Shown one piece after another: positions 5,555-51,976 of a DNA stretch of 64,000 nt (positions are counted from its first letter, which is position 1; each line of letters opens with the position of its first letter). The stretch is from a virus, in IMG/VR virus record IMGVR_UViG_3300049845_000008, positions 9,811 through 73,810 of that record. One strand, written 5' to 3'. Under the pieces are notes generated by a model that saw only the letters and a list, made by a program, of their open reading frames with translations, had not been told where the DNA came from and made no database searches. A program made the position numbers and the translations under genes.

Positions 5555-6898
5555 TCAACCGATTAGGTTGACGACTTGGAACTTACGGTAGTAAGTGTTG
5601 GTGCCGTTTGCCAGAGTTCCCGAGACAGCCGTTTCAGCACCCTGCGAAGAGTTCTGGAATGGGTTGCCAACCATGCCGTAGCGGGTCTTGAACCCGATCT
5701 TAGGCTGGAAGGTGTCTGGATCGATTGCGCGAACCATCTGTAGAGGAACGTATGGGCAGTAGAACACACCTGCGTCATAAGGGGTTGGACCCTTATAGCC
5801 AACGATTACGTAGTCTGCGCCCGTTACCGAGTATGGATCCACGTAGACCTTGAGGCGACCGAATAGCGTACCTGCGAAGGTGTTGCCAGTGTCGTCAACC
5901 GAAAGGTTGGTGTTGTTGGTGAGTGCGCCCTGATAGTCAAGCAGACCGGTCATCGACAGAGCCGATGCAACGTCCGTGCTGACGATCAGAATGTTGCCCT
6001 TGCCACGGCGAGTGTCCTTAGCAATCTTGTTGCAAGAACGCTCAACAGCGAACAGAAGTCCCTTGAACTTTTCAACTGCCCAACGTCCGGACGTATCCGA
6101 AGTGCTGTTCAGGTTGAACTGTGCCGAGGTAAGCCCCGTAACACCAACGTTTGCCACTGCGTAAACCGTGCGAATGACTTCGCGGTTGATTTCTGCAAGG
6201 ATTTCGGTGGAAAGGATGTTCGATAGCTCGGCTTCTGCGTCAAGACCGTGAATCGCCTTCAAATCTTGAGCGAGTTCAAGCGTGTACTGTGCCTTAAGAG
6301 CGCGGCTCTTAGCGACAACCGACACACGCTCAATCGTGAAGCCCATTTCTGCCATCGTCGAGCCGAGGTTTTCAGCCGTAGACGTAGACATGCCGGTACC
6401 GGTGTTAGCCAGAACGACATTAGCAATGTTACCGCCGAGTGCAGCAGCAGTGTGAGTGCCGGTGCCTGCCCATGCAGTGTTAGCTTCGTTGTAGAACGAT
6501 TCAGGGGTCGATGCTGTGTTGAGGACAGCGTTGCCAGTGTTAGCATACTTAGCCTGCATCGCGAAGATCAAGCCGGTAGGACCGGTCATTGGCTGCACGC
6601 CGCAAACGTCATATGCCATTAGGTTAGGAAGTGCACGACGAACCAATCCGATTAGGATAGGATCGAAGCCCTTGATGTTGCCTGCGCCAGTCTCTAGCGA
6701 GCCTACGCCTGCGCCGACCGAGTTAGGAACGGCTTCGAACATGTTGCCATAAGCAGCAGCTTCTTCGCGCATTGCCTTTTCTTGGTTCTCAAGAATGACA
6801 GCCGTGACTGCCTTCTTGTATGGGTCCGTGATCTTAGCCAGTTCAGGGTGATCAAGGACTGGTGCCCACTTCTGGACATGAGTTTCTGATAGATACAT
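5555..6898 (-). CDS. gp23: Major capsid protein
   Basis: GVQPMTGPTGLIFAM, ELAQDLKAIHGLDAEAELSNILSTEI, FQPKIGFKTRYG. Confidence 0.98.
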   Translation of the reverse strand: MYLSETHVQKWAPVLDHPELAKITDPYKKAVTAVILENQEKAMREEAAAYGNMFEAVPNSVGAGVGSLETGAGNIKGFDPILIGLVRRALPNLMAYDVCGVQPMTGPTGLIFAMQAKYANTGNAVLNTASTPESFYNEANTAWAGTGTHTAAALGGNIANVVLANTGTGMSTSTAENLGSTMAEMGFTIERVSVVAKSRALKAQYTLELAQDLKAIHGLDAEAELSNILSTEILAEINREVIRTVYAVANVGVTGLTSAQFNLNSTSDTSGRWAVEKFKGLLFAVERSCNKIAKDTRRGKGNILIVSTDVASALSMTGLLDYQGALTNNTNLSVDDTGNTFAGTLFGRLKVYVDPYSVTGADYVIVGYKGPTPYDAGVFYCPYVPLQMVRAIDPDTFQPKIGFKTRYGMVGNPFQNSSQGAETAVSGTLANGTNTYYRKFQVVNLIG

Positions 6899-6940
6899 TT
6901 GGTTTTCTCCGTAAGAGGTTTGGTTTAGTTCGCAGTTGCC

Positions 6941-8182
6941 TTACTTGGCTAGCTGCTTGCTGATTGCTGATACATAACGATCCATACTTGGGGTTACTTC
7001 CTTGGTTTCAGTCTCTACGAGAGCCTGTGGTGCTTCACTGACCTTTTTACCCGATGGGAAGTAATTCTCGCGAATCACTGCGAGCTTCTGCGAATACTCA
7101 CCCTCTGTGGTGAACTCTACGCCCTCTGCGAGCGACTTAATCTTTTCGACCTGAACTTCAGTCAGACCTTCGCAAATCTTGCGTAGGACTTCCTGAGACT
7201 TAGACTCTGCCAATGCCTTGACGAGCTTCGTGTTCTGTTCAGCCTGTTCCTTTAGCATTTCCTGAGAGCTAGCAACCTGTGCTGCAAGTTCTTCTAGGAG
7301 GTCTGCCTTCTCTTCTGGAACTTCAATGTAGTGTTCCGTGAAGAGATTCTTGAGTCCTGCCATGAAGTCTTCGGCAATTTCTGCGCGTAGACCAGACTCG
7401 ACTGCAAGCTTGTTGTCTTCCATCCACTGCTCGACCACGTAGTTGAGGTATTCGTCAACCTGCGAGGTCATCTGCTCTTCAAGCTCAGACACGGTGGATT
7501 CCATGATTGCTTCGTTCTCAGCCGAAACCTTCTCGACAATCGCTTCGACGCGGCTGCGGACAGCGGCTTCGAAAATCGTCGTTGCTTTGGTCTTGAACTC
7601 TTCCGACAGATTCTCGCCGCTGAATAGAGCGTCGATATCCTGTGCGCAAGAACCCATGTTCTCGGAAACCAGAGCCTTGAGTGCTTCGGTACGAGCGGCT
7701 TGAACTTCTTCTTCGGTCAACTCAGGAGCTACTTCTTCCTTCACTTCCTTCTTGTCTTCCTCATCTTCGTCCTCGTCCTTCTCATCTTCATCGTCATCAC
7801 ACTTCTCGCCCTTGGCTTCGGTGACAACTTCTTCGGATGATTCCTCTTCCTCGGACAGTGCTGCAAGTTCTGCTAGCTCTTCTTCGGATAGGGTGTCGAG
7901 GTATGCGTCGATTTCTTCTTCGGTCAGTTCAGGAAGATCTTCCTCAGAAGACTCTTCTTCCTTAACAGCCTTAGCGGATAGCGGCTGCCCTTCCTTTGGA
8001 GTGACAGCTTCCTTAGCCTTAGCGGAAACCTTTGGTCCGGTTGCCTCTGGCTCAGTTGTAGGGGTTTGTCCACCGAGGTCTTCGGCTCCTGCGCCGGGAC
8101 CGGCTTCCAACGGATCCTTCTTGGCAGAGCCAAGGGACGTTGCGAGGATTTCGGCAGCAGATTCAGATAGGGACTTGCTCAT
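6941..8182 (-). CDS. gp22: Prohead core scaffold protein
   Basis: Acidic; LSEEFKTKATTIFEAAV, YLNYVVEQWM.DN.LAVE.G, HYIEVPEEK. Confidence 0.93.
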   Translation of the reverse strand: MSKSLSESAAEILATSLGSAKKDPLEAGPGAGAEDLGGQTPTTEPEATGPKVSAKAKEAVTPKEGQPLSAKAVKEEESSEEDLPELTEEEIDAYLDTLSEEELAELAALSEEEESSEEVVTEAKGEKCDDDEDEKDEDEDEEDKKEVKEEVAPELTEEEVQAARTEALKALVSENMGSCAQDIDALFSGENLSEEFKTKATTIFEAAVRSRVEAIVEKVSAENEAIMESTVSELEEQMTSQVDEYLNYVVEQWMEDNKLAVESGLRAEIAEDFMAGLKNLFTEHYIEVPEEKADLLEELAAQVASSQEMLKEQAEQNTKLVKALAESKSQEVLRKICEGLTEVQVEKIKSLAEGVEFTTEGEYSQKLAVIRENYFPSGKKVSEAPQALVETETKEVTPSMDRYVSAISKQLAK

Positions 8183-8207
8183 GTTCTAACTCCTGTTAGG
8201 GTACGTT

Positions 8208-8214
8208 TATTTAG
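8208..8214 (-). promoter_or_regulatory. Late promoter CTAAATA (gp22/gp23)
   Basis: Intergenic, followed by an AGGAG RBS. Confidence 0.7.
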
Positions 8215-8219
8215 TAAAC

Positions 8220-8864
8220 TTAAAGTTTTGACAAGAAATTCTCAAAGATTCTCAAGGAGATATCTTCGATCTGTCTAGACTTTGCGTTGCGGATTTCATC
8301 ATACATTTGGACAACATCGACCTCACGGACGATTCCATTGTCCCAAACCCATTCCTTACCTTCCATGATGCCTTGTACAAAGGCTCCGGGTGCGGATGGG
8401 TCAGCCACGATATCTGCTGCTGTAGCGAGATAGTAGTCATCTTGAACCATGTTCACGCCATTGACTTCCTTGAGGGAACCCATGCCGCGTGAAGACACGC
8501 CTAGGCTTGCGCCGCCGTCCAGAAGCCCCTTTGCGGTCTTGCCGTATGGGGTTTCAAGGATTTTAGCCTTGCCGTAGAATGTGGATCCTTCCTGACGTAG
8601 ATTGACGATCAGGTGGGAAACACGGTCTAGATTGATGGATGGAGAGTCAGGATGCCCCAACTCACCGAATGCTCTGTTCTTAGTGATATACTCTTCATTG
8701 TAGCGGCGAACTTCCCGCTCAAGAATGGACTTGGAATAGACACGCCCGTTGCGGTTCTTCTGCTCGCCCACTAGGAACGGACCAGTGATGAAAAGGCTCT
8801 TGACACCGTTCTTTTCTTCGGTGAGTACCTTCACATCCTGTAGTGTTTCTGTGATAAGTTTCAT
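8220..8864 (-). CDS. gp21: Prohead maturation protease
   Basis: KNRNGRVY, GELGHP, GVSSRGMGSL, DIVADPSAPGAFV. Confidence 0.97.
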   Translation of the reverse strand: MKLITETLQDVKVLTEEKNGVKSLFITGPFLVGEQKNRNGRVYSKSILEREVRRYNEEYITKNRAFGELGHPDSPSINLDRVSHLIVNLRQEGSTFYGKAKILETPYGKTAKGLLDGGASLGVSSRGMGSLKEVNGVNMVQDDYYLATAADIVADPSAPGAFVQGIMEGKEWVWDNGIVREVDVVQMYDEIRNAKSRQIEDISLRIFENFLSKL

Positions 8865-8869
8865 TAGAC

Positions 8870-9196
8870 TTAAACTCCTAGTGACTGTCTCTTGCGCATG
8901 GAACGCTTGCGCTTCATCATGCTTCTTGCCATCTTTGCCTTACGCTTGACCTTGCCCTTTCGTGCTGCTTGCTTACGCTTCATTCTCTCGGAAGAGGACA
9001 TGCGAACAAGCTTGCCGCCGCGCATCGTGTAGCCGGGGCGAGTCGAGACTTTCTTCTTTCTCTGAATCTTGCCACCGCGCACACGCGCCTTGACGATCTT
9101 GAAATTGGCTTCGTCCAGACTCGTCGCGACTGCTACCTTGTAGGCTTGCAGCTTCGCTTCGGCAATCTGGTCGAGGTACACAAACAGGTTATCCAT
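8870..9196 (-). CDS. gp68: Basic prohead core protein (gp68-like)
   Basis: Highly K/R-rich C-terminus ending KRKRSMRKRQSLGV, L-D-E cleavage-like site, directly upstream of gp21. Confidence 0.6.
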   Translation of the reverse strand: MDNLFVYLDQIAEAKLQAYKVAVATSLDEANFKIVKARVRGGKIQRKKKVSTRPGYTMRGGKLVRMSSSERMKRKQAARKGKVKRKAKMARSMMKRKRSMRKRQSLGV

Positions 9197-9431
9197 TTGG
9201 ATACCCCGGCTGTCCTACAATCGGTGCGCCCATGTCCGAGTTTCCTGCGGATCCACCATAAGGAATGGTGAACACCAAATTGTATTTATCATTAGTGTAA
9301 AGTGCAACATGCTTTCCATCAGGGAAAATACGAATGCCGCGCCGACGCAGAACGAGCATAGGCGCAGGAATGGATTCATCCCTGAGTGCCTTATCCTCAT
9401 TCAACTTGGAACGTAGTTCGCGGAACTTCAT
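9189..9431 (-). CDS. Head-cluster hypothetical protein (probable start MKFRELRSKLNE)
   Basis: PMLVLRRRGIRIFPDGKHVALY motif; start at 9431 abuts the upstream stop. Confidence 0.65.
   Translation of the reverse strand: MKFRELRSKLNEDKALRDESIPAPMLVLRRRGIRIFPDGKHVALYTNDKYNLVFTIPYGGSAGNSDMGAPIVGQPGYPNG
9283..9289 (-). promoter_or_regulatory. Possible intragenic late promoter ATAAATA
   Basis: About 90 nt upstream of the gp68-like start. Confidence 0.4.
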
Positions 9432-9432
9432 G

Positions 9433-10353
9433 TTACTTGAATCTCTTGATGCGTTGCAGTGCTTGATTGAATTCGTTTGGATTGGCTTCAAGCGACTGTC
9501 CGAGCGGAACGCCAGACTGCGAAAGCGACTGCACAGCCTGTGCCTTCTGTGCGCCTAGCTTGCGCATGAGCATGTAGCCGGGAGCCTTTGGATTCTTGGC
9601 TGCGAGCTTGGAGAAGTCACGATGCCCTGCGGCTGCTTGCGTAGGGTTGATACCCTTGATTCGAAGCGTCTGCATCGCACGGCGAATGTTCGTCATGACA
9701 TTACGGTTGAGTGTAGCATTCGAAGGAGCAACGGCACTCTTCGAACCGCCCGACAGAACTTCGTCTAGCTGCGTGTCTTCGTTGACTCCTGCTGCTGCCA
9801 TGAACTTCGCACGATCAAATCGTGGGTTCTGCTGCTTGAACAGGGATGCATGGTGATTAGCCATTTCCTTGCGCTTTTCAGGATGTTCGATGCTCTTGAT
9901 CAGGTCTGCGGTCTGCTGAAAGTGCTTGCGAGTAGGACCGCCTTCTTCAAGGGTTTCTTCCTTGACAGCTTTTCTCTTGACAGCACTGCGAGCGTCCTTG
10001 ACGAACTTTGCGCCACGGTCAACATACTCCGCGCCTACACCACCGGGAACGCCACCCATGTTCTTGAAATACTTGCGTGCAGCCCCTTTGAGTTCCTGAC
10101 GATGCACGGAAACCTTATGTCCTAGTCCACCCTCATAGTCTTTGCCGATTGCGGAAACGTGACGAGTCCACCGACGCTGCGCGTCCATGCCCTGCCCTTC
10201 CTGTAGATCGTCCATGATGGTCGAAGCGAGTTCTACCTTGCGGACTTCCAGATGATCAGCCAAACGGTCTTGAATCATGGATTCAAAAGCGGAATTTGCT
10301 GCATCCTTGTTGTCTGCTGCAAGAGCGTTGATCAGGTGATTTGCTGTGGTCAT
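9433..10353 (-). CDS. gp67: gp67-like prohead core protein with long C-terminal extension
   Basis: N-terminal AF.SMIQDRL...LEVRKVELASTI gp67-type helix; follows the portal gene; several L-x-E sites. Confidence 0.6.
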   Translation of the reverse strand: MTTANHLINALAADNKDAANSAFESMIQDRLADHLEVRKVELASTIMDDLQEGQGMDAQRRWTRHVSAIGKDYEGGLGHKVSVHRQELKGAARKYFKNMGGVPGGVGAEYVDRGAKFVKDARSAVKRKAVKEETLEEGGPTRKHFQQTADLIKSIEHPEKRKEMANHHASLFKQQNPRFDRAKFMAAAGVNEDTQLDEVLSGGSKSAVAPSNATLNRNVMTNIRRAMQTLRIKGINPTQAAAGHRDFSKLAAKNPKAPGYMLMRKLGAQKAQAVQSLSQSGVPLGQSLEANPNEFNQALQRIKRFK

Positions 10354-11963
10354 TGTGGAACTCCGGAAGGTATGCCTGTATTTATGTTTGTTGGACTTCC
10401 TGCCTGTGGATTAGAACCCGCAAGAACCTGCTGCTTCGCCATTTCTGCCTGTGCCATGGCTGCGTAGATTTCCTGCTCTTCGGCAATCTCTTCATCCATC
10501 GTTTCGATTTCTTCTTCGGAAAGATGTAGAACGTTCTTCTTGATCCACTTCATCGAATAGTAAGTTCCGACATAAGGAACCAATCCGTTCAGAAGTGTGA
10601 CGCGAGAGGTTAGTAGTTCTGCGTCCTTTAGCTCAGAGAAGTTGTTGTCTTCAAGGTAGTCATAGTAGACGAATTCCTTGATCTGATCCCATTCTTCGTA
10701 GGATGCGATGCCCTTGAGCGCAAGCTGACGCTTCATCAGTTCATCGAACAGGGTAGAGAACTTAGCACGAATACGCTCAACGAACTTGTTGAACTTCAAC
10801 TCGTCGCGAGTAATCTCGTTGCTTCTGCCGATGGAGAATCCCTGCTGTGGTTCTAGGCGACCGACTGGCACGCCGAGCGAACGATAGAGAACCTGTTGGA
10901 AATACTTTACGTCGTCCAACTGTCCAAGTGTCTGTCCACCTTGCAGCGTAGTGATTTCGGTAGACTTACCTTCACCACGGCGAGGAATCCAGAAGTCTTC
11001 GATCATGGAAGTGAACTTACGGTCATCCTTGACTTCGCCAGTGTTCGCATCATAGACGATCTTGTTACGGAACTTCGTCATGATATCGTTCATGTACTGG
11101 TCAGCCTTCATCTTAGGCAGATTACCAACGTCGATGTAGAACACACGGCGTTCTGGTGCGCGGGACAGGCGATAGATTACCACCGCGTCTTCGATCATTC
11201 TAAGTTGATTTAGAGGCTTGATAGCCTTGTGCAGATAGGACAGAACCATGTTGCGTGATACGTCCATCAACCCGGAGTTGATGTTCACCACTGCGTCTTC
11301 TGCGATCTTCATGGATGCATCGACCGGCGACGACATGACCATGTTGCCACTCGTCATCGACTTGTCGTTGTACACATAGAAGTCTGCGTAGCCAGAAACA
11401 AACTCTACGCCTGTGCGCGGATCCTTGTTCTTGATGACCGTGCGAACCTTGCGGATCTTGCGCGGGTCGAGATAGACAAGTCCTATGATTCCGTTCTTTG
11501 GATTGGTTTCATCTATCTGTACCTGATAGAACAGGCGACCATCGACATACCAACGGCGGAAGATATCGTGTCCATTGTTGTCGAAGTCCAACATGCGTAA
11601 CAGAGACTTGAACTCTTCGCGCAGCATGTTCTTGATGGATTCGGATTGCTTGAGTTCATCAAGCACAATCTCAACAGACATACCCTTTTCGTCGTGGACG
11701 ATTGCTTCGTTGACGATTTCATCGATGGCTGCTTCCACTTCGGGTTGCATAGCCATGGTGCGATAACGAGAGATTAGCTCGTTCTCGTTCTTGAATGCGG
11801 ACTCTAGATTGAGGTAGGTGCCATAGTAGCCACCGAGAGCGCCTGCGTTGATGACGTATGCGCCATCATCTGTCTGTGGCGGTGCGATAGCGGGTGCTTG
11901 GGCAACTACGGTGTCGTTTTCCGCTGCCCGAGTGATCTGCCAACCGAATAGGTTAATAGCCAT
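10350..11963 (-). CDS. gp20: Portal vertex protein
   Basis: IFRRWYVDGR, SYLHKAIKPLNQLRMIEDAVVIYRLSRAPERRVFYIDVGNLPK. Confidence 0.98.
   Translation of the reverse strand: MAINLFGWQITRAAENDTVVAQAPAIAPPQTDDGAYVINAGALGGYYGTYLNLESAFKNENELISRYRTMAMQPEVEAAIDEIVNEAIVHDEKGMSVEIVLDELKQSESIKNMLREEFKSLLRMLDFDNNGHDIFRRWYVDGRLFYQVQIDETNPKNGIIGLVYLDPRKIRKVRTVIKNKDPRTGVEFVSGYADFYVYNDKSMTSGNMVMSSPVDASMKIAEDAVVNINSGLMDVSRNMVLSYLHKAIKPLNQLRMIEDAVVIYRLSRAPERRVFYIDVGNLPKMKADQYMNDIMTKFRNKIVYDANTGEVKDDRKFTSMIEDFWIPRRGEGKSTEITTLQGGQTLGQLDDVKYFQQVLYRSLGVPVGRLEPQQGFSIGRSNEITRDELKFNKFVERIRAKFSTLFDELMKRQLALKGIASYEEWDQIKEFVYYDYLEDNNFSELKDAELLTSRVTLLNGLVPYVGTYYSMKWIKKNVLHLSEEEIETMDEEIAEEQEIYAAMAQAEMAKQQVLAGSNPQAGSPTNINTGIPSGVPQ
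10379..10385 (-). promoter_or_regulatory. Late promoter ATAAATA (gp67-like), inside the gp20 3' end
   Basis: 25 nt upstream of the 10353 start. Confidence 0.6.
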
Positions 11964-11985
11964 GCGTTACTCCATATCAAAGGAA

Positions 11986-12015
11986 GGGTGCGTTGACCTT
12001 GGGATCAACGCACCC
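11986..12015 (-). terminator. Hairpin/terminator between gp19 and gp20
   Basis: 11-bp stem GGGTGCGTTGA...TCAACGCACCC followed by TTCCTTT. Confidence 0.65.
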
Positions 12016-12023
12016 ATTTCAAG

Positions 12024-12611
12024 TTAAGCCGACTTCTGAGGAACAGCCGAGCGAGTGTCGTCACTCTCCCAATACTGGTACGAAAGGGTTACTGAGAACT
12101 CTTCGACCGCATCGTTGCTGCCCCAATCAAGATCGATTGCTGCGAGGTCATTAGGGAACATACCAACGAAGCGATACTTCTTGATAGGCGTTCCACCAGC
12201 CTTCGAATACTGGTACACTTCTGCATCGACAGCGTAGGACGTTCCCGGCGTGAGTGGCGAAGTGCTGACTGCACCCGGCTCACGGAGGTTGGTCTTGTTG
12301 CCGTTGATACCACGGTGCCAACGTTCAAATGCGTTGCGGATCGTGAAGTCTTCGTCGTTGATGACTGTGACTGACCAATCAGCGAAGGTACGGTTGCCTG
12401 CGACCTTGACTTCGCGACCGAAGTAAGGCACGGTGACTGCGCCCAAAGTCGAGCCGGGAAGCTGCGCGGTCTTCACGAAGAATCGTGAGAGTGCCGATGC
12501 TTGGCTTCCAAGCTGAACGAACGTTGGGAACTGCAACACAACTTCGAAGAGGTTGGGACGCGCACCATCGAACTGCATGGCTGTTCTGAAATTGTCTACG
12601 TTAAATGACAT
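12024..12611 (-). CDS. gp19: Tail tube protein
   Basis: GARPNLFEV, GREVKVAGNRTFADWSVTVINDEDF, EEFSVTLSYQYW. Confidence 0.96.
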   Translation of the reverse strand: MSFNVDNFRTAMQFDGARPNLFEVVLQFPTFVQLGSQASALSRFFVKTAQLPGSTLGAVTVPYFGREVKVAGNRTFADWSVTVINDEDFTIRNAFERWHRGINGNKTNLREPGAVSTSPLTPGTSYAVDAEVYQYSKAGGTPIKKYRFVGMFPNDLAAIDLDWGSNDAVEEFSVTLSYQYWESDDTRSAVPQKSA

Positions 12612-12639: not shown

Positions 12640-12646
12640 TATTTAT
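12640..12646 (-). promoter_or_regulatory. Late promoter ATAAATA (gp19)
   Basis: At the gp18 stop, followed by AGGAG. Confidence 0.7.
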
Positions 12647-16048: not shown

Positions 16049-16475
16049 TCTTGATCTGCTTCAACAGGTCTGCGGTGGAGCCGGTGAATACAGCCTTGTC
16101 AATGTTTACGGTCTGCTGAGTGGGCGCAGGACCGCCTTCTCTGCCGTCGAGCGCCTTCTTCTTTTCGTGCAAGATCATGAGCTTGTCTGCCATGTCGGAC
16201 AGATTCTTGAGTAGCCCCGATGCGACTTCATACGCACGCGGATGCTGCGATTCCTTAGCCACCTTGAGGAGTTCTGGCAGTGCGTCCTGTCCTTGCTCTA
16301 GAAGGTCGCGATGAAGATTGCGAGTGTACTCATAGTCATATTCCACATCACGATTAGTGTCTGGAACCGGGTCCGACGCAACCACCACGGGATGCTCTTC
16401 CACCGGGACGACTTCATTCACAACCTCCGGAACGATTTCCAGAATGGTGTTGAGATTCTGTTCTACTTCACTCAT
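16041..16475 (-). CDS. gp16: Terminase small subunit
   Basis: DYEYTR, ESQHPRAYEVA, AVFTGSTADL. Confidence 0.95.
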   Translation of the reverse strand: MSEVEQNLNTILEIVPEVVNEVVPVEEHPVVVASDPVPDTNRDVEYDYEYTRNLHRDLLEQGQDALPELLKVAKESQHPRAYEVASGLLKNLSDMADKLMILHEKKKALDGREGGPAPTQQTVNIDKAVFTGSTADLLKQIKNG

Positions 16476-18360: not shown

Positions 18361-18363
18361 GGC

Positions 18364-19227: not shown

Positions 19228-19234
19228 TATTTAG
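19228..19234 (-). promoter_or_regulatory. Late promoter CTAAATA (gp13-gp17)
   Basis: Overlaps the stop of the upstream ORF. Confidence 0.7.
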
Positions 19235-43100: not shown

Positions 43101-43289
43101 AATCTTCTCGGAGTTGAGAATGATCTTGTTGCCCTTCTGTGTGAAGCCATTCATCGCCACTTCATCGAAGAAGATGCGAGCTAGCTTCTGAGGACGCAGA
43201 TTGTTTGCATCAAAGGCAATGTCCTGTTTCCGCATGTACGGAATCAGGGTTGAATCACCTAGAACTGTTGCTTGTGTTACGTCAGCCAT
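40152..43289 (-). CDS. Virion structural protein (C-terminal part of a DUF4815-type giant protein)
   Basis: IPYMR, FRTGERLLTI, DPIAQTF, GVFVTSVELFF, TKFTF.DPVFL, QPYAGSFFRSQN.TTWT..Q.EDL.F, NLRIIA. Confidence 0.8.
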   Translation of the reverse strand: MADVTQATVLGDSTLIPYMRKQDIAFDANNLRPQKLARIFFDEVAMNGFTQKGNKIILNSEKILTVVPNTSYTAASSDYFYQGSSNVAPTFSANVKSYNSATGQLVIFAMSGNFDSSANVYIEKNTGITTFSASVTREVSSNTSDIFTMNEGVINANTKTFMKVIGSSGENILYVSENFINANLAQMNVALSSLHFNPGDLVYQSTTGRAEFNNAVFTGKVEYYDSGTGSLAISPINGRMNTNSSAANIRATLWNASNTSTPEFRVSGVKLVDIASNNRIVSVTTASKNVAVVLYEHSSGVVANATANTIEGGGQYVYLNATANTNAVGNVMYLTSGTGLGQFRRVTAVSGKRVTVSSAFSVDPSSNTKYSIGNLYVDENGSLNGILNVPEEPNFKFRTGERLLTITDVDSLDSDDFTMKASARFSSGGLRNSSQRVNLTPIMRPLPETPPNNPVVPPPPTQRPVSPAPVAAPVVRTPVSLIPRRPSRDPIAQTFWTPKPDTNKVSYGVFVTSVELFFGAKPSVARASLQLPVQVKIAEVVNGYPTQNYLAEATVKCKDVKISTSPSYDDPNTITKFTFRDPVFLAPDTEYALLVVSDSPEYECYIAELGGNVLGADPPQRISEQPYAGSFFRSQNATTWTPYQNEDLMFVINKAKFSSTGSASFQIKEVPTFDMNVDRMFINADKLSFPVSDIDFKVKGVFKANAAFDNYVAIKPQTIFKYGDLMDASNKETSANFNNARTLLTGNANSVQVLAEFATSDTDVSPIFNLETLAVVPADHAINNAGISNTVISITNPGAGYNAVSTSGNVVFGGANNTQNNIAQLFRETYLANNFNVGFYYVSVAANEFGTGAEGFAVANTDASNTVNYIVMTSEGSGYIKTPRLNVAIGNAASGMIRAAAVAQGEDGKRGGNILCRYLTRQIALEDGFEAGDLRVFMDVVRPNGTDVHCYYKVLGSEDPERFADKSWVLMNKVVDKKSKDARQVIELQFRPDLLENELKYMENGIQYPIGGKFKYFAVKVCLTAVDTTVAPWVQNLRIIATPEG

Positions 43290-43317
43290 TTAGAGAATAC
43301 CTTGTGCGTTAATCATT

Positions 43318-43324
43318 TATTTAT
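43318..43324 (-). promoter_or_regulatory. Late promoter ATAAATA between the two DUF4815-type halves
   Basis: Intergenic, at the upstream stop. Confidence 0.65.
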
Positions 43325-46300
43325 CATCTAAAAGTCACGAATTCCAGCGATCCCATCTTCGTAGAAAGGCTGAATCCACCACCACTCGACGCAGTGACCG
43401 GTGCTGTATAGACTGGCAGCGGCGAACTTGGTGCCGGTGGAATTGGCGCAGGCGTCTTCACCGTGAGGGTTGGGAACAGCAGTCGGATACTGTCGAAGGT
43501 GCTTCTGGTCGTCGTGGTGGTGAGTTTAGGCACCGTGAACGACAGCGATGGAATCAATGGCGACTGAGAAACCGTGGCAACCGGCGTGTTGAACGTCGTG
43601 TTAGCCGCAGGAGGATCGACACCCGGAGTGGTTGTAATCACACTGGTTGCGTTGGAGGTTGGCGTAGGAACCTGTGGCTGTGGCACTGGCTCACGCACTC
43701 TTTCAGCCGCACGCTCGGAGTTGTAGATTTCGCGAATGCGGTCATCAACTTCTGGCGCACGCAGAACATCAGGCTTGAGGGTTTCGGATACCCAAAAGTC
43801 CATTTCCGGAGACAGTGTGCAGTCACCAATGAACTGTGCGAAGAGGAACGGCTGAACCGAAACGAGCTTGTTGGAAGTCACAGTCTGTGCAACCATAGGC
43901 TCTTCGGTGAAGTTCAGCGTCACTGTACGCTCATTCATCTTAAGGTTAGTGGTGTTCAGCAGCTTCATGCCGAAAGGAACGTTGCCCACGTATGGACCCA
44001 TTTCACCTTCTTCCATCGAAACGTTGAAGTCCTGATCCTTGTAGTCAGCGATGTTGAAGTTCTTGAAGCCTTCACCGATGATGCCGTACTTAGCCTTGTC
44101 GGTGCCGTCTTCATACTTCGTAGAGTCGCCCATGGCTAGCCCTTCGATGTTGTTCAGCGAAGTGTAGTATTCCAGAGACTCAACGCGCTTGTCGATTCGC
44201 GAGATATCCTTCATGGTGTATCTGCGGTTCTCGTTGTACTTCAAGCGAATGTCTTCGGTCGAGGATACGAACGGAGCGAGATAGATCGTGTAAAGAGTCA
44301 TCGCATCTTCTGTGTCATCCGGTGGGATTGGCGCAGGCGAAGAGACACCCTTGAGAATGCGGAATTCCTTGTGCTTCGAAAGAACGAGCTTGTCGATACG
44401 TGGGAGATAGTAGTCGAAGCTCAATTCGGTCGAACTGTTTGGATCCGGCAGAATGCCCGTATCGATGGTTCCGTCCGAAACGCCGATGCGACGGGTTGGG
44501 CGGAAGTCGAGGCAGTCACGCAGGAAGTATGCACCCGAGGATTCGGAGAAGTAGACTGGAATCTGCCCATCCTCATACACGGTCGTATCATACGAGTCCA
44601 CGGAGAAGTAAGTGGAGTTAGCAGGATAACTGTGCTGATAGAAGTCAACGTGTATCGTCAACCTTGCATTCGGCGTAGGGTATCCCTGCTTGAGCGTGAT
44701 CTTGGCGTGTTCATACATTTCCTCAGTCTGTCCGAGGTCGATGGCAAAGTGGTCAGTAATGTCCTGACTGTTTGTTGCATCTGCAACATGCGTGGTGTTG
44801 CCCTTGAGAATTGCACGGACGTTGACCACATCAGGCACATAGAGGCTGATGGAATCGCCGGGGAAGATCTTAGTGACAGATGGTTCCGTGATGAAGATCA
44901 GTCCGTTTGCGACGTTGATCTTAGCCACGTTGCCCACGTTAGGGACTGCAACCGTGTAGTCGGTGTTTACGCCGCTGTCCGTTGGATAGTTGAACGGCGC
45001 AGTGGTGAGCAATGGATTCGAACGCAGGGTCTTCGTGCGCTTACGCAGATGCGCATCGTTCTGCTTGACGAGAACATATGCATCGATTCTGGTAATCGTG
45101 GATGGAAGAGTGACCGTAACTGCACCACCCAAGCCGGGAGTGACCGCGACTTCGCCAGTGTTCAGCTTGAGAACCGTTCCGTTGGCAATTGCACCGCCCG
45201 AGGTTTCACGAACCACAACGATCAGGTTGTCTTCGATGTTCGAATTGGTGACAGACCATGGAATCGATTCGTGCGCTTCAACCGTCAACGTGAAGATACC
45301 GCCTGCGCCAGTGGATTGCATGTACTTGATGTTGTTGTAATCAACATTAGTCAACGATCCGCGCTTGACGGTGTTCTGTGGCAGACGGAAGATAACCCGC
45401 TTGTCAGAAGCTTCGAAGAGTTCCGTGGAGCCGTCGATCAGCAAGGACTGGATTGCGATGTTCGCATGGGCATTAGCCTTACCGAACGTGGCGTTAGGCT
45501 TGACCCAAGACTTGAGGTTGTTGATGCCGAAGTTCAACTGGACAACGGTGTTGTTCGCAGGAACGGCATTGTCGTCCCATGGTCGATCAATCGTTGCAAC
45601 CTGAGTCGAACCCACGTAGGATGTGATCTTACGCGACTGGTTGGTGACGTTCGAAGAGTACGTGTTCTGTAGAAGAATCTGCACGTTGGCGTTTGGCGAG
45701 CCGCCCACAACCGTCTTCGTGAACGCTGAGTTGACGTAGAGGTAGTTTGTAGCCACGTTGACAACTTCACGAACTTCGTCAGCCACGCGAATGACCTGTC
45801 CTACCTGCACCGAGGCAAGAGTGGATTCCGCATTGACGCGAGTGGAGTTGATGAAGACGTTGGCTGCGTTGACAGCCGCAACAGGAGTGAGTGTAACAGG
45901 CAGAACGGTGATCGTGGTGTTCTGGTATACGTTGTCCTTCTGGCTTGATAATGGCGGCAACTTCACAGTGGTCGAGGTCGAACCGGTAGGAATGACAAGC
46001 ACTCTTGGCTTGATGTTGATATCGGTGAAGTGGAAGTCGAAGACACCGTTGGAGTCTACGTTGGCTACGCCGTCCTGCGCTGCGATATCGCGGCGAATAG
46101 CACGAATCTTGGCTGTACCGATCTTCGTGTTGGCGTAGAAGGACGAGTTCGCACCGGCTGAGACACCAATGTTGACGTTGGCAACGTCGGTGCAGTGGAG
46201 GTCTACCGTGTCAAGTCCGGTGGTGTTGATGAACGTTGCGGCGTTCGAACCCCATACGTTCTTGAACTTAAGGTAATTGCCATAAGAAGTATCGAAGTCA

Positions 46301-47343
46301 ATGTCCACAAGCGAACGAGTATCGATACCGTCCGTGCGTGGCTTGGGAGCTTCCATCTTGACCGTGCCGATGGTTTCAAATTCGAAGCCCTTGACGTAAG
46401 CCTTGCCCGGTTCGATGTTGATGATGTAGTTGTTTGCGTTCTGCGATTCGCCCACGGAAGCGCGGAAAGGAATGACGGTGTAATCGCCCGACTCATCGAA
46501 CGTTCTACGTGCGAGTGTCTTTTCGATTTCCGAGTAGATTGGATACTTGACTTGCTTCGTGATTGCGCCGTTCTCGACTCGCATGAGTTCGAAGAACTTG
46601 GATTCGTCAACTGCGGTGTCCAGAGGGCGAGTGGAGAGCGTCAGTCCGAACTGGTAGCGGTCTGCACCCGGAGCCTGATAGTTGAACGAGTCCTGTGCAG
46701 GATCCAACAGAGTTGCGTCGATAGCGTAGTCTACGATTTCGTCGGTGACTTCAAGACCGATCTTGACGTTTGCGTTCTGAGAGTAAGCAGCGACCACAGC
46801 CGTCTGTGGATTGACCGTGACGAAATAGCCGTCAACGTAGAAGATACCGTCGTTGATCGATGCGACCGTTCCCTTGCCCGACGCAGCCGAAGCGATCAGC
46901 TTGGCGCGAGTGGTGGTTCCTGCGACCTTGAATACGTCGCCGTCCGAGAAATCCACACCCGAAAGATACTTGATCAACAGGGTTGGCGTACCGCCCGATG
47001 GGTAGTACGATGCGAGAACCTTAGCCTGTACCAGAGAGTCAGAGTCGCGAAGAATGACCTTACCCACGAATAGGTCAAGCTCAACGTCTTCGTTGTTGTA
47101 GGTTTCGTCTAGCTTGATGTACGTAACAGAGTTGTCTAGGGCTAGATTGCCGCCAATGACAGGCGAACCATCCTGAAAGATGTGGTCGCCAAAGGCTTTG
47201 ATCTGGTTCTGTAGAATAGACTGAATCTGAGTCAGTTCGCGTGCCTGAACTGAGAACCCCGGCTTGAACAGGATCTTCAGATAGTTGTTGTCTTTCGCGT
47301 TCTGCTGAAAGTCGTCGTTATACGGTTCTACGTTGAATTCCAT
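43324..47343 (-). CDS. DUF4815-type large virion structural protein (N-terminal part)
   Basis: FNVEPYNDDF, KILFKPGFSVQARELTQIQSILQNQI, APGADR, LARRTFDESGDY, YYLPRIDK, RRYTMKDI. Confidence 0.85.
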   Translation of the reverse strand: MEFNVEPYNDDFQQNAKDNNYLKILFKPGFSVQARELTQIQSILQNQIKAFGDHIFQDGSPVIGGNLALDNSVTYIKLDETYNNEDVELDLFVGKVILRDSDSLVQAKVLASYYPSGGTPTLLIKYLSGVDFSDGDVFKVAGTTTRAKLIASAASGKGTVASINDGIFYVDGYFVTVNPQTAVVAAYSQNANVKIGLEVTDEIVDYAIDATLLDPAQDSFNYQAPGADRYQFGLTLSTRPLDTAVDESKFFELMRVENGAITKQVKYPIYSEIEKTLARRTFDESGDYTVIPFRASVGESQNANNYIINIEPGKAYVKGFEFETIGTVKMEAPKPRTDGIDTRSLVDIDFDTSYGNYLKFKNVWGSNAATFINTTGLDTVDLHCTDVANVNIGVSAGANSSFYANTKIGTAKIRAIRRDIAAQDGVANVDSNGVFDFHFTDINIKPRVLVIPTGSTSTTVKLPPLSSQKDNVYQNTTITVLPVTLTPVAAVNAANVFINSTRVNAESTLASVQVGQVIRVADEVREVVNVATNYLYVNSAFTKTVVGGSPNANVQILLQNTYSSNVTNQSRKITSYVGSTQVATIDRPWDDNAVPANNTVVQLNFGINNLKSWVKPNATFGKANAHANIAIQSLLIDGSTELFEASDKRVIFRLPQNTVKRGSLTNVDYNNIKYMQSTGAGGIFTLTVEAHESIPWSVTNSNIEDNLIVVVRETSGGAIANGTVLKLNTGEVAVTPGLGGAVTVTLPSTITRIDAYVLVKQNDAHLRKRTKTLRSNPLLTTAPFNYPTDSGVNTDYTVAVPNVGNVAKINVANGLIFITEPSVTKIFPGDSISLYVPDVVNVRAILKGNTTHVADATNSQDITDHFAIDLGQTEEMYEHAKITLKQGYPTPNARLTIHVDFYQHSYPANSTYFSVDSYDTTVYEDGQIPVYFSESSGAYFLRDCLDFRPTRRIGVSDGTIDTGILPDPNSSTELSFDYYLPRIDKLVLSKHKEFRILKGVSSPAPIPPDDTEDAMTLYTIYLAPFVSSTEDIRLKYNENRRYTMKDISRIDKRVESLEYYTSLNNIEGLAMGDSTKYEDGTDKAKYGIIGEGFKNFNIADYKDQDFNVSMEEGEMGPYVGNVPFGMKLLNTTNLKMNERTVTLNFTEEPMVAQTVTSNKLVSVQPFLFAQFIGDCTLSPEMDFWVSETLKPDVLRAPEVDDRIREIYNSERAAERVREPVPQPQVPTPTSNATSVITTTPGVDPPAANTTFNTPVATVSQSPLIPSLSFTVPKLTTTTTRSTFDSIRLLFPTLTVKTPAPIPPAPSSPLPVYTAPVTASSGGGFSLSTKMGSLEFVTFR

Positions 47344-47354: not shown

Positions 47355-48968
47355 TTAGAATGATAGAACGAGCCGAATTTGCTCGGTCTGGTCTGCGTCA
47401 CGAACGATTTTCGCTCTGTTCTCAATATATAGGAGGTCGCCACTAAACAGCCCGATATCGGGTCCGGTTTCACCTAGAACAGTCGCGGTTGCGGCTGAAG
47501 TTGCGCCCGTCAGGGTCGAACCCACCGTCACATTGCCCGACAAGTTGTTTACGTACAACTCGTTGGTGGATGCGTTCCATGTAACCACGGTGCCGGTGAA
47601 GGTTGCGTCGTTAGGACCGGTTCCGATGTACACGGTTTCGTCGTTCGAATAGTTCGAAGTGCCGGGATCCGTCAGGCTCAACTTAGTGGTCGAGCGATAG
47701 ACAGAGCCGTTGGCATAGACACCATTGGCTAGCAATGGGTCACGAATTAGAGATATCTGGCGGAAGTCGAACGGAACTACGTCCGTGCCGACAGGGATGG
47801 TGTCGCTTTCGGTGCCTTCGAAGCTTACGGCTGTCATGACCGAGTAGCATCCGAGTTCCTTGATAGGGTTGGATCCATGTCCACCGGGAGGGCTGATCAT
47901 GGCTTGGAAGATGGCTGCGTTGCCGTTCGACAATTGGTTAGGGTCTACAGCCACGACATTCGCGGAAGTGTATCCGGTGCCGCCGTTCAGAATATTCAGG
48001 TCGGTGATAACACCGGAAGAGATATTCGCAGTGACCACAGCCCCTTCGCCGTCGCCCGTGACCGTGATGATCGACAGGGAGGCTGAGTTGCCCGATTCGC
48101 CATTGTCGAGGAAGTAGCCTGTGCCGCCGTCTTCGATCATGATGATATCAAGGCGTCCGTCTGTTGCGCCTGCAACCACCGAGTTGTCCTTGATGACCGG
48201 CATCCAGTTGTTTGTGAAGAACTTCTGCTTCAAGCCGTAAGGAATCGTGTACAGGTATTTCCACTTATAGCCGTCAGCCGTGAGAATGTATGGATTCTCA
48301 GGAAGCTGCCCGTCAATGTCGATGGTCGGCTCCGTGGTAGAAGGAATGCCCACGCCCGTATCGGATCCATTGTGCAGGCACTTGAAGACCTGATCCTTGG
48401 AGTTACGGCAGTAGAAGTTGTTGGCAAAGTGTGGATAGGTGTTGTCGATTCGGACGATGGTTCCGTTCAACACAGAATAGGTAAAGGCAGTGTTGACCAC
48501 CAGATGCGTCGTATTGACACCGACAACCTGCTTAGTCTCTGCGTTGAGTGTGATCGTGTTACCGACAGAGATTACGCCTGTCCATGTGGCAGTATTAGCC
48601 ACGATTAGATTGCCGGTGGCATTGGCTGTGCCAGTGACCGTCAGCTTGTCCTCATGGGAGAATAGCTCAACGTCGTCGTGGTATTCGTCATAGGTCGTTC
48701 CTGTTACCCAATCGATGCGAGGAACCACCAGTGCGGTATCGGCTGCCGCGACTCTTTTCAGTGCGATCATGTCGCGCCAGACCTGATTACGATAGTCCGT
48801 GGTGTAGCGAACATCCTCAATCTCGTTTGCGGTTTCGGTGTCGTCTGCTCCCCAACGAATAGGGCGACCAATGCAGAGGTACGTGTTCGCATAGGTAGGG
48901 AACACGTTCGCTTTGATGATTTCCACAATCTCAAACTTGAGAAGTGGAGTGATGGCTGATTTGCTCAT
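47355..48968 (-). CDS. gp8: Baseplate wedge subunit
   Basis: VVPRIDWVTGTTYD.Y, VFKCL.N, DGYKWKYLYTI, PPGGHG, DFRQISLIRDP, SGDLLYIENR. Confidence 0.9.
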   Translation of the reverse strand: MSKSAITPLLKFEIVEIIKANVFPTYANTYLCIGRPIRWGADDTETANEIEDVRYTTDYRNQVWRDMIALKRVAAADTALVVPRIDWVTGTTYDEYHDDVELFSHEDKLTVTGTANATGNLIVANTATWTGVISVGNTITLNAETKQVVGVNTTHLVVNTAFTYSVLNGTIVRIDNTYPHFANNFYCRNSKDQVFKCLHNGSDTGVGIPSTTEPTIDIDGQLPENPYILTADGYKWKYLYTIPYGLKQKFFTNNWMPVIKDNSVVAGATDGRLDIIMIEDGGTGYFLDNGESGNSASLSIITVTGDGEGAVVTANISSGVITDLNILNGGTGYTSANVVAVDPNQLSNGNAAIFQAMISPPGGHGSNPIKELGCYSVMTAVSFEGTESDTIPVGTDVVPFDFRQISLIRDPLLANGVYANGSVYRSTTKLSLTDPGTSNYSNDETVYIGTGPNDATFTGTVVTWNASTNELYVNNLSGNVTVGSTLTGATSAATATVLGETGPDIGLFSGDLLYIENRAKIVRDADQTEQIRLVLSF

Positions 48969-51900
48969 TATTCCGTTACCTTGATGATTTCATAGGTCGT
49001 TTCGGTGTAGACTGGAACCACCTGATAGACCAGACCGGTGTTCGACGTATTGGCAGTGTTATTTAGGGAGACTACATTACCGGATACGGCTGTGACCGAA
49101 TAGAGTTCGATATTTCCGACATTGATTCGAACCACATCGCCGGTCGCGATAAAATCCGAAACCGAGTTAGTGTTGCCGCTGATCTGTAGCAGGTTATTGC
49201 CACTGTTGGTGGACGCCTTGCCCTGTCCAATCATGACAAAGTTGGACTCTACGTTCAGGCTCGTCGGAGAGGTGATGAACTTGATGATCTTAGCCTGACT
49301 GCGCAGCGGCGCGATAGGATCTGCGATTAGAAGTATGTCGCCCACGGCTGCGGTCAATGTGAAGAGGCTGTTCGCGCCCGTGACCACCACGTTGTAGGAG
49401 TTGGACACCGTGACCGTCGCATTGGCATTGACATACGGAATGGTCGAGACAACCGAAACCGGTGTGATCGATTCCGTAAGCTCGGACTTGGAGATTGTAC
49501 GCCCAAGCATGACCATGCCGATTGGGTGGACGATATCCTTCATGGAATTAGAGTAATCCGACAGCGACTTCTCAGACTCAATGACGTAGGAGTAGTTGTG
49601 ATACTGCTTGCTGTCCTGTAGTTTCTTGTCCGAAGACAGGAAGCCGTCCGTGTTCAGATAGAATCCGGTAAACTTGATCAGACCGTTGTAGAACTCTGCG
49701 TATCCCTTAGCCTTGCCATTGCCGTAGAACCATGGATTGTCCAAGCCGACCGCACGGATTTCCGCAGGGTAGGAGGAAGGAGCCGGAACCTTGGCTGCCT
49801 GATCGACAAAGAATGTGACACCACCTTCGGAAGTGAATTGCAGAGACTTGTTGAAGCTGCCGAAGCTATTGCCCGAATAGTTGAACAGGCGTAGCAGGCG
49901 AGTCGAACGGTTGTAGGACTTGATGATGCCTTGGAAGGTTGCAGTCTCAAGGGTTGGTCCCTGATAGACACGCTCGCCTTCGGAAAGGGATTCTGCTTCC
50001 AGAATTCCGTCGATGATCATGTCCACAACCTTGAACGAAACGATAGGCGTATCGATGTAGTCGAATCCACGGCTGATCATGCGAACGTCCTTGACGCGCC
50101 CGATTGCACCCGTTTCGACACCCACTTCGACACCTTCTCCGAAGCCATAGGCTGAGAGTGATGCATTAGCACCACCGGAAGTGGTGACGGAAACCGACTT
50201 GGCGTTGTAGTAGCCTTCACCACGGTTGATGATGGTGGCTGCGACGATGGCACCGTTAGCCCCGACCGTGACGTTACCGGTGAATCCATAGCCCGATCCG
50301 ATGACGGTGAGTGCGTCACCGTTGGCATAGCCGGTGCCGGGGTTATCGATGTAGATGTGCGCAATCTGTCCGGTCGCAGAGAGCAACTGGCGAGAGTTTG
50401 CATAGTCCTGCGTGCCATACTCATACGCTTCTGAGAGATACGTATCGTGATAGGACTCAGTTCTGATCACAGGCGTCGAACGGAAGCCATAGCCACCGTT
50501 GAGAATATTGTAGAGAGCTACGCCACCCGTTTCGATGCGTTCGAAGTTCAGTGCTTGGCAGATCGAAGAGTTGGCATTGATCGACATTTCAATGTCATCG
50601 ACGCTGCTGACCGTGTAGTTTCGCAACGAGTTTGTGGTGGTGATGGTGTTGCCAGTGAGAATGGTCAGCGGCTTTGTGTTCTGCACGGCGTACATGACCA
50701 CCTGTGCAGGACCGCCCACCCACGCTGCGTTCGATGTGATGATCTTGCCGACGATGTTTGCAGTCTGATAAGAGCCATTAGAATCAGCGTACCAGTCTTC
50801 GTACTGATGCCACTTGGCTGAACCCGAACCGGGAGTACCTGTGATGGTGAGCAATACGTTGCGAGCGTTGGACGAGAACAGCACCCAATCGCCCGTGTTG
50901 GAGAGTACCTGAGAGGCTGCGTACTCAATCGGCATCTTATCGACAACGATGTATTCAAGGAACTTGGCGTTGGTGTTGGCTGTGTCATCGAACGTGGTGA
51001 TACCAGCCACGCGAATGTCCGTGGACAGATTAGCATTAGGATCGTCGCCCACGGAGCGATAGACAATAGCTTCTGTGTTTGAATACGTGCGGTAGCCATA
51101 GCCTCCGAAGACCACGGACAGACCTTCGATGGATCCCACGGTGACGTTGCCGACGACAGCCACGGCATCGTTAGCTTCGGCTGTGGCTGCAAGACCACCA
51201 AAGACGATGACAGGATCACCGACGTTGTAGGATAGACCTCTACGCTTCTGCTGTGGGTCTGTACGAATCTGAGAATCCACCACGATGTTCGAAATGGATC
51301 CGATGATCTTTTCGGAGAAGAGTTGCTCGACGCCGTTTTCATCGACATACGGAATCTCTAGATCTTCACCGTTTGTGAAAGAACGGAAGACGTTGGAAAC
51401 GTACATTTCCAGAATTTCGGTTCCGAACGTGCGGTCGATGGTCTTGTTAGCCGATTCGATGATACACGTAGCCTTGGAGATAGATCCGGTAGCCTTGTGC
51501 TTCTCTAGCAGGTTAACATCGATGTTCTGATTGGCTGCGGATAGCGTCAACTGAAAGGCTTGTGGCAGCTTCCACTTACCGTCCGAGGCAATGAGAATCT
51601 GCTGCTTCGGATAGTAGACGTTGATATCTTCGCCATAGAGAACGCGGAACAGCCACTTGACAGACTCTTCGGAACCCTTCTTGATGTAGAACTCGCGTGC
51701 GCCCTTGAGGATCTTGACCAGATCCAGTTCAGAGTTCTCAGGGAAGTACGGCAGGAGTTCCTGCTTGAACAGACGAATGAACGGGTCCAGAGTTTCGTCC
51801 ACATCACGATACTTACCAGAGTTCATGATGTGGTAAACGGTATTACCCTTAGTCTCGTCCTCTAGCCAAGTGTAGTAGAGTTCAAGAAAACGCTTGAACT

Positions 51901-51976
51901 GTGGATGATCTGCGCGAACGAAATCCGGCAGTTGCCGGTTGATCAACGCGGATACTGTTTTCTCTGCTGTTGCCAT
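48968..51976 (-). CDS. gp7: Baseplate wedge initiator-like protein
   Basis: QLPDFVRADHPQF..FL..YY, EFY..KGSEES..LFR.LYG, KLQDS..Y..YSYVI, HPIGM; between gp6 and gp8. Confidence 0.75.
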   Translation of the reverse strand: MATAEKTVSALINRQLPDFVRADHPQFKRFLELYYTWLEDETKGNTVYHIMNSGKYRDVDETLDPFIRLFKQELLPYFPENSELDLVKILKGAREFYIKKGSEESVKWLFRVLYGEDINVYYPKQQILIASDGKWKLPQAFQLTLSAANQNIDVNLLEKHKATGSISKATCIIESANKTIDRTFGTEILEMYVSNVFRSFTNGEDLEIPYVDENGVEQLFSEKIIGSISNIVVDSQIRTDPQQKRRGLSYNVGDPVIVFGGLAATAEANDAVAVVGNVTVGSIEGLSVVFGGYGYRTYSNTEAIVYRSVGDDPNANLSTDIRVAGITTFDDTANTNAKFLEYIVVDKMPIEYAASQVLSNTGDWVLFSSNARNVLLTITGTPGSGSAKWHQYEDWYADSNGSYQTANIVGKIITSNAAWVGGPAQVVMYAVQNTKPLTILTGNTITTTNSLRNYTVSSVDDIEMSINANSSICQALNFERIETGGVALYNILNGGYGFRSTPVIRTESYHDTYLSEAYEYGTQDYANSRQLLSATGQIAHIYIDNPGTGYANGDALTVIGSGYGFTGNVTVGANGAIVAATIINRGEGYYNAKSVSVTTSGGANASLSAYGFGEGVEVGVETGAIGRVKDVRMISRGFDYIDTPIVSFKVVDMIIDGILEAESLSEGERVYQGPTLETATFQGIIKSYNRSTRLLRLFNYSGNSFGSFNKSLQFTSEGGVTFFVDQAAKVPAPSSYPAEIRAVGLDNPWFYGNGKAKGYAEFYNGLIKFTGFYLNTDGFLSSDKKLQDSKQYHNYSYVIESEKSLSDYSNSMKDIVHPIGMVMLGRTISKSELTESITPVSVVSTIPYVNANATVTVSNSYNVVVTGANSLFTLTAAVGDILLIADPIAPLRSQAKIIKFITSPTSLNVESNFVMIGQGKASTNSGNNLLQISGNTNSVSDFIATGDVVRINVGNIELYSVTAVSGNVVSLNNTANTSNTGLVYQVVPVYTETTYEIIKVTE
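49060..49066 (-). promoter_or_regulatory. Intragenic late promoter CTAAATA for gp8
   Basis: About 90 nt upstream of the gp8 start. Confidence 0.45.

Follow-up and report, generated by a model that had tools for sequence, protein, structure and literature searches.

The exposed virion proteins of an uncultured T4-like myovirus and of its closest relatives contain about twice as many Ala-Asn dipeptides (AN) as their composition predicts. We analyzed this excess in a stretch of 64,000 nucleotides, called the window throughout, which covers positions 9,811 to 73,810 of the IMG/VR virus record IMGVR_UViG_3300049845_000008 and represents the structural module of the phage, with its genes on the minus strand (coordinates below are those of the window and of this strand, unless otherwise indicated). 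The excess is genuine, resides in the protein rather than in the DNA sequence, and is restricted to a single clade. It is directional, specific for the coding frame as well as for Ala at position -1 and Asn at position 0, and confined to exposed proteins, in which the number of sites is kept while their positions shift. As judged from the sequences, A-N-(T/V) could be a short surface motif under protein-level selection, read by a lineage-specific factor of which an Asn-directed modifying enzyme would be the likeliest kind; we tentatively assign this reading a probability of about 0.35.

In the 48 open reading frames (ORFs) considered, AN occurs 212 times, while 106.3 occurrences are expected from a global shuffle of each whole protein (z 11.2). 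Shuffling the residues only within segments of 20 or 10 amino acids raises the expectation slightly, to 118.0 (z 9.6) and 121.6 (z 9.8), respectively, and the reverse pair NA is present 118 times, as expected. Local heterogeneity of composition is ruled out by these shuffles, by others made in 15-residue segments and by the lack of an NA excess. The hand counts from which the original prediction started were all reproduced exactly, and the enrichment survives the composition shuffles that had been proposed as a check. Among the 400 dipeptides AN ranks second to third, its companions QG and TG stemming from collagen repeats; therefore, the choice of this pair after inspection of the sequence is not an artefact of multiple testing. 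In independent relatives it ranks first. At the DNA level, the hexamer GCNAAY is enriched in frame 0 only (212 vs. 106.5), the counts in frames 1 and 2 being 16 vs. 20.6 and 21 vs. 34.7, which indicates that the signal acts on the protein and rules out a DNA motif or a codon-pair effect. A preference for GCC ahead of AAY exists, and holds for Ala-Lys too. Tandem repeats and shared domains were likewise rejected as the cause: only the fibre protein encoded at 37300-39930 is repetitive, and without it 174 AN are found for ~94 expected. Since an all-against-all BLAST detected few domains in common among the AN-enriched proteins, the excess must have arisen in largely unrelated folds. Finally, the eleven ORFs encoded by the initial 10.4 kb of the contig, of which the last two also belong to the window set, contain 8 AN for ~9.6 expected.

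The observed/expected ratio (O/E) of AN is 2.2-2.7 in the exposed classes, namely capsid, sheath, neck, baseplate and fibres. Capsid, sheath and neck together have 26 AN against 12.0 expected, the baseplate proteins 66 against 30.7 and the fibres 97 against 36.4 (59 against 24.2 without the repetitive fibre). The internal virion proteins, on the other hand, have 14 against 19.1 (O/E 0.73) and the non-structural proteins of the window 7 against 5.8, the ratio for replication proteins being ~1. The major head protein gp23 (5555-6898; phrog_138, E = 6e-148) contains 6 AN in 447 residues with 3.5 expected, four of which are clustered at residues 118-164 (YANTG, EANTA, IANVV, LANTG), and the tail sheath protein gp18 (12646-14361; phrog_23) contains 10 in 571 residues with 4.7 expected, and eight of these lie between residues 85 and 252. 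The neck proteins gp15, gp14 and gp13 (16475-19188) have 3, 3, and 4 AN for 1.8, 1.0, and 1.0 expected, respectively, those of gp13 (18364-19188) being spread over 274 residues. In the baseplate, the counts are 10 against 3.1 for the gp8-like wedge protein (47355-48968; 537 residues), 14 against 5.2 and 5 against 3.4 for the gp7-like and gp6-like wedge proteins (48968-54030), and 16 and 15 against 8.6 and 6.8 for two large distal proteins (40152-47343), one of which carries DUF4815. As for the fibres, the 59 AN mentioned above belong to the block at 22171-37297, made of a Hint-like tip protein, three collagen-repeat proteins, a fibre protein of 1185 residues, a Gly-rich protein and small accessory proteins, while the collagen fibre with a Peptidase_S74 chaperone domain (37300-39930) has 38 against 12.2. 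The internal contrast set (scaffold, protease, small head proteins, portal, and tube) is encoded at 6941-12611. AN is absent from the tube protein, gp5, the gp27-like protein, the scaffold and the protease, and occurs once or twice in UvsW, portal, terminase and gp47. None of the zeros is significant by itself, as 0.6-1.1 AN are expected in each of the proteins concerned.

The residue composition around the pair is highly selective. Immediately before Asn only Ala is favoured (2.07-fold), the ratios for Ser, Gly and Thr being 1.08-1.15, 0.95-0.99 and 0.72; conversely, only Asn is favoured after Ala, with Asp at 0.91. A wider motif consisting of any small residue followed by Asn is thus ruled out in the window (SN 1.15, GN 0.99), and SN is raised only in Caulobacter phage Cr30. 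After the Asn of AN, Thr, Val, Ser and Gly are preferred, and the core A-N-(T/V) is enriched ~3.4-fold: with local shuffles in segments of 15 residues, AN[TV] is found 52 times vs. 15.5 in the window, 42 vs. 11.9 in Stenotrophomonas phage DLP6 and 25 vs. 6.2 in Cr30.

DLP6 (54%), Pelagibacter phage Mosig (51%) and Cr30 (49%) are the nearest cultured phages by sheath identity, whereas marine cyanophages are not the closest. In the exposed proteins, the O/E of AN is 2.23 for this window, 2.13 for Cr30, 1.95 for seven uncultured relatives found via gp8 and 1.88 for DLP6, whose non-structural proteins stay at ~1. Mosig (1.44), phiM12 (1.43) and HTVC008M (1.34) have lower values, followed by X1 (1.25), pf16 (1.14), S-CAM1 (1.13), T4 (1.11), OC (1.09) and ACP17 (0.74). 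Furthermore, among 82 sheath orthologues the O/E climbs with identity to the sheath of this phage (Spearman 0.63). The homologous gp6/7/8, VrlC/DUF4815, sheath and capsid proteins reach only 0.74-1.25 in T4, S-CAM1, OC, pf16, X1 and ACP17, compared to 1.9-2.2 in the clade; therefore, homologous proteins differ between lineages in this dipeptide, and the excess is limited to one branch formed by this phage, its uncultured relatives, DLP6 and Cr30. A comparison with T4 and cyanophage orthologues had been suggested at the outset, and those of T4 and S-CAM1 do not show it. Neither GC content nor host appears to be the cause: the AN-rich phages span 38-56% GC and infect Caulobacter and Stenotrophomonas, while the Xanthomonas phage X1 is not AN-rich.

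The behaviour of single sites was followed in the sheath. Across 78 orthologues, the AN sites are spread over 102 alignment columns, and at only 4 of these is AN present in at least 20 sequences. Nearly all sites lie within residues 50-350, which form the variable part of the protein, and their columns accept charged residues too; these two properties suggest that the sites are exposed. In an AF2 model of the sheath protein (pLDDT 84; match to T4 gp18 with a TM of 0.73), 60% of the AN asparagines are in coil, 35% in helix and 6% in strand, a distribution much like that of all Asn, so that no preference for a secondary structure can be recognized. Likewise, the O/E in the 36 closest orthologues is 1.51 in coil, 1.57 in helix and 1.37 in strand, and declines to ~0.7 for coil and strand in 28 more remote ones. 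Since the excess is similar in the three states, no single local structure accounts for it. Taken together, the survival of the signal under composition control and the location of the sheath sites at variable, charge-tolerant columns support the view, put forward in the original prediction, that a sequence-specific motif is selected on exposed virion proteins.

We favour the reading of A-N-(T/V) as a surface motif recognized by a lineage-specific factor because it explains the specificity of the pair, its confinement to exposed proteins, the way in which sites turn over while their number is kept, the indifference to structure and the absence of the excess in homologues from sister lineages. 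According to this scheme, the motif would be kept by selection on the environment-exposed virion proteins of one T4-like branch, the most economical cause being a factor that reads it on folded or folding virion proteins. This factor would most likely be an enzyme that modifies Asn, whether by glycosyl transfer or otherwise, and its gene would lie beyond the 74 kb available; the source contig is a fragment of 73.8 kb from a virus record, and for related IMG/VR records of about this size the completeness is rated at 38-55%. The narrower proposal that A-N-(T/V) is the acceptor of a phage-encoded cytoplasmic enzyme, which would attach a glycan or another adduct to Asn on capsid, sheath, baseplate and fibres, seems to us rather unlikely.

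Our estimate for the motif reading stays low: its prior probability is small, neither an enzyme nor a chemistry backs it, and several other observations weigh against it. The sequon N-x-S/T is not enriched, with 229 occurrences vs. 205 ± 13 over all window proteins and 150 vs. 139.8 (z 1.0) in the exposed set, where the sequons lacking a preceding Ala are 107 vs. 125.8. The window has 13 chlorovirus-type NTxT for 8.7 expected (z 1.6) and DLP6 has 10 for 10.6, so this form is not enriched either; among the NT.T forms ANT.T alone is raised, as a by-product of ANT. Thus, of the motif first described as AN that often forms N-x-S/T, the excess of AN and the preference for T, V, S or G after Asn hold, but the sequon itself is not over-represented. 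No Asn-modifying enzyme is present among the Pfam and PHROG matches of the proteins of the 74-kb contig; neither an NGT/GT41 nor an oligosaccharyltransferase is included in these matches, the contig being itself a fragment, and the window contains no glycosyltransferase. As a consequence of these negative results, N-glycosylation of the AN sites gains little support. In addition, the uncharged, beta-branched flanks of the sites (see below) would be compatible, too, with a structural habit of beta-rich modules that lack charge, the Asn residues of the fibre shaft are conserved and periodic, and the compared phages are not independent of each other in phylogenetic terms. Finally, to our knowledge, modification of virion Asn has not been reported for tailed phages.

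Three groups of candidate modifiers were considered. The first consists of three sulfotransferase-like paralogues (19231-21850; ~185-223 residues, 25-30% mutual identity), which the original prediction had considered as possible modifiers of Asn-linked glycans. Of the three, only 20185-20742 matches Sulfotransfer_2 of Pfam (E = 6e-7); the two scanned against PHROGs (19231-19884 and 21179-21850) had no match, the only one queried by tblastn (21179-21850) had none in 50,697 phage records, and no counterpart of any of them was detected in the compared loci, which include ~100 kb of DLP6 (Cr30 is not among these loci). Given that the queried paralogue has no phage homologue, while the AN trait is common to DLP6 and Cr30, the sulfotransferase-like family cannot explain it, and the proposed link is not supported; many uncultured relatives are AN-rich as well.

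The second candidate is a GT-A-like ORF located outside the window (contig positions 1437-2249, minus strand), which belongs to phrog_1574, a family of unknown function, and reaches 22 bits with Anp1/GT62, below the cut-off. Its setting is the replication module, where it is flanked by a dNMP kinase and an HTH gene and has the clamp gene close by. By tblastn, orthologues with 44-54% identity are found in DLP6, Cr30, phiM12/phiN3 and the Ochrobactrum phage OC, and also in a Rhizobium phage, but not in T4, S-CAM1, pf16, Mosig, X1, HTVC008M and ACP17. The O/E values of phages with the gene are 2.23, 1.88, 2.13, 1.43, and 1.09, and those of phages without it range from 1.44 to 0.74; a rank sum, for which the values were ordered by hand, yields U = 28 of 35 in a comparison confounded by phylogeny. 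The gene therefore tracks the AN trait loosely, as a weak trend: the correlation with glycosyltransferase content suggested at the outset is seen in the higher mean O/E of phages that have the gene, but OC is a counter-example. Indeed, its presence in OC (1.09) and in phiM12 (1.43, similar to Mosig), as well as its setting among replication genes, are further points against the motif reading. Its position would fit a DNA modification too, and the putative product could glycosylate DNA or protein.

As a third possibility, a 2OG-oxygenase or Asp/Asn hydroxylase was examined and rejected: S-CAM1, Mosig and HTVC008M, whose AN content is poor or intermediate, have genes annotated as such, and the depletion of VN does not agree with FIH-type sites. 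Mosig has two Asp_Arg_Hydrox genes (Asp/Asn beta-hydroxylase-like; 9144-9746 and 41186-41371 of the Mosig locus compared) near its baseplate module, and none was seen in the window.

Alternatively, the excess could be a structural habit without any modification, in which the outer modules, beta-rich and uncharged, would carry Ala-Asn where a strand meets a turn or at the corners of a solenoid, as a small residue followed by an Asn whose side chain caps or forms a ladder. We regard this explanation as possible, though less likely than not. It applies best to the fibre encoded at 37300-39930, in which most AN are found in an N-terminal shaft of ~50-residue tandem units with ANxxxAN spacing (ANVTLAN, ANAVLAN, ANIVTAN); 14 homologues, with a 2-3 fold AN excess of their own, conserve this Asn behind an A, S or G. 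Although the AF2 model of the shaft is unusable (pLDDT 42.7), this pattern looks structural and solenoid-like, and the regularly spaced [A/S/G]-N of the shaft probably puts this dipeptide to a structural use of its own. A structural habit is also consistent with the flanks of the 565 AN sites of the AN-rich clade, where T, V and I are enriched, beta-branched residues are common and, between -3 and +7, D, E and P are under-represented, and with several sheath and capsid sites that read strand-ANTG-loop. On the other hand, it does not predict a sheath excess that is equal in coil, helix and strand, nor the poor conservation of the sheath sites, nor the lack of excess in the homologous domains of sister lineages. 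Moreover, Asp does not replace Asn and neither Ser nor Gly replaces Ala, unlike in the usual turn motifs, and no longer motif emerges around the pair; a beta-like pattern after AN is no commoner than chance (14 vs. 17.3 expected with the AN positions fixed).

Another explanation is that selection acts on a property of the surface rather than on recognition by an enzyme, for instance a surface that contacts carbohydrates, that is low in charge and non-sticky, or that resists environmental proteases or deamidation. Deamidation is slow when Thr or Val comes after Asn, and NG is the fastest-deamidating pair. The restriction of the excess to environment-exposed proteins, the enrichment of NT and NV together with the depletion of TN and VN in the AN-rich clade, and the uncharged neighbourhoods would all agree with this idea. 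However, it leaves the need for Ala, specifically, before Asn unexplained, NG is not depleted (0.95), and the trait is common to phages of different hosts (Caulobacter, Stenotrophomonas) while being absent in others from similar habitats. For these reasons we consider it improbable.

Two further explanations have little left in their favour, composition, repeats, DNA motifs and coiled coils being excluded as causes. Trimeric coiled-coil stalks with Asn at position d, in which ANT would occupy c-d-e of the N@d heptad known from trimeric autotransporter stalks, could have been expected in fibres, which are trimeric, but are highly improbable, as the heptad [ILVM]xAN[TS]xx[ILVM] is found at 1 of 180 AN sites vs. 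2.1 expected and the AN-rich shaft is spaced by 5 residues instead of 7. An artefact is the least credible of all: tandem repeats do inflate the count of fibre 37300-39930, yet local shuffles give z ~9.7, the signal is frame-specific and persists without this fibre, few domains are shared, and independent relatives place AN first among all dipeptides.

With regard to the gene layout, the window begins with gp47, gp55, UvsW and UvsY, followed by a tube paralogue, gp23, gp22, gp21, portal, gp19 and gp18, and by terminase, gp15, gp14 and gp13. Next come the three sulfotransferase-like paralogues with small ORFs, the Hint-like tip protein, the collagen-repeat fibres and the Peptidase_S74 fibre. 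The two large distal baseplate proteins precede gp8, gp7, gp6 and gp25, and the order ends with gp5, the gp27-like protein, gp53 and an SLT tape-measure-like protein. A single clear gene on the plus strand (62938-63555) adjoins the latter; it is an ORF of 205 residues with a NUMOD3 motif and probably represents an inserted homing endonuclease. Two genes of the tail-tube family (phrog_45), at 4892-5440 and 12024-12611, encode products with 25% identity across 151 residues, the former, near uvsY, being probably a gp3-like tail completion protein.

Some features of the exposed proteins deserve mention in their own right. The Hint-like tip protein (22171-23004; 277 residues, 5 AN vs. 1.1 expected) has a sub-threshold Pretoxin-HINT match at residues 168-271 and is similar, in residues 89-138, to the C-terminal end of the Gly-rich protein (36074-37297). 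Two heptapeptides recur in proteins that are otherwise unrelated: ANVVLAN in gp23 and in the collagen fibre protein 27466-30303, and ANGVYAN in gp8 and in the 1185-residue fibre protein (30787-34344). A domain common to gp8 (residues 271-479) and to the gp7-like protein (48968-51976, residues 536-703) has 28% identity (E = 7e-5). Collagen repeats are present in four proteins (23001-26654, 27466-30303, 34780-35700, and 37300-39930), owing to which QG is the most over-represented dipeptide of the window (338 vs. 118-151 expected), while GQ, GG and QT are strongly depleted; these opposite deviations indicate a strict G-x-Q / G-x-T phase, nearly free of proline.

If A-N-(T/V) were a modification site, it would mark the first Asn-linked virion decoration in tailed phages and a chemically coated virion for one T4-like branch, the tailed-phage counterpart of chlorovirus capsid glycosylation with a sequon of its own. 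Such a sequon could be read from genomes and would bear on host recognition, on evasion of immunity and defence, and on particle stability. If, instead, the excess were a structural habit, whole virion surfaces could bear lineage-specific signatures of short motifs that mimic sequons, which would call for caution with claims of glycosylation based on motifs only. In either case, the question can be tested now, as the AN-rich Cr30 and DLP6 and several AN-poor relatives are in culture.

We know of no published Ala-Asn signature on phage virions, but parts of the pattern can be compared with known systems. The fibre shaft resembles the pentapeptide-repeat proteins (A[D/N]LXX) and the Asn ladders of beta-solenoids in having Ala-Asn every five residues and a conserved Asn; however, the fibre has no Pfam pentapeptide match, its central residue is V, T or A and not L or F, and such a ladder cannot explain the scattered sites of sheath, capsid and baseplate. 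That the virions of tailed phages can be glycosylated is reportedly shown by mycobacteriophages, in which, as Freeman et al. described in 2023, phage-encoded glycosyltransferases decorate capsid and tail proteins by O-linkage at Ser/Thr-rich C-terminal tails. There the glycosyltransferase genes lie in the structural module, whereas in our case the motif is centred on Asn and scattered, and the module contains no such gene. In Haemophilus and Actinobacillus, as far as the account in PMC9614988 (ref. 185) goes, the cytoplasmic NGT/HMW1C enzymes (GT41) transfer a hexose onto Asn of surface proteins before their export. These enzymes read N-x-S/T, which is not enriched here (z ~1), and no GT41-like protein was seen in the contig. 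Finally, Vp54 of the chlorovirus PBCV-1 is N-glycosylated at the sites NTGT, NTET, NTAT and NIPG (PMC9614988). Here, unlike in PBCV-1 with its virus-encoded cytoplasmic enzymes, Ala before Asn defines the motif, NTxT is not enriched, the hosts are bacteria, and neither a glycan nor a comparable set of glycosyltransferase genes was found. Nevertheless, PBCV-1 provides a parallel in kind, namely a virus-specific Asn site outside N-x-S/T on an exposed capsid protein, and the Asn-Thr of its sites resembles the A-N-T described here.

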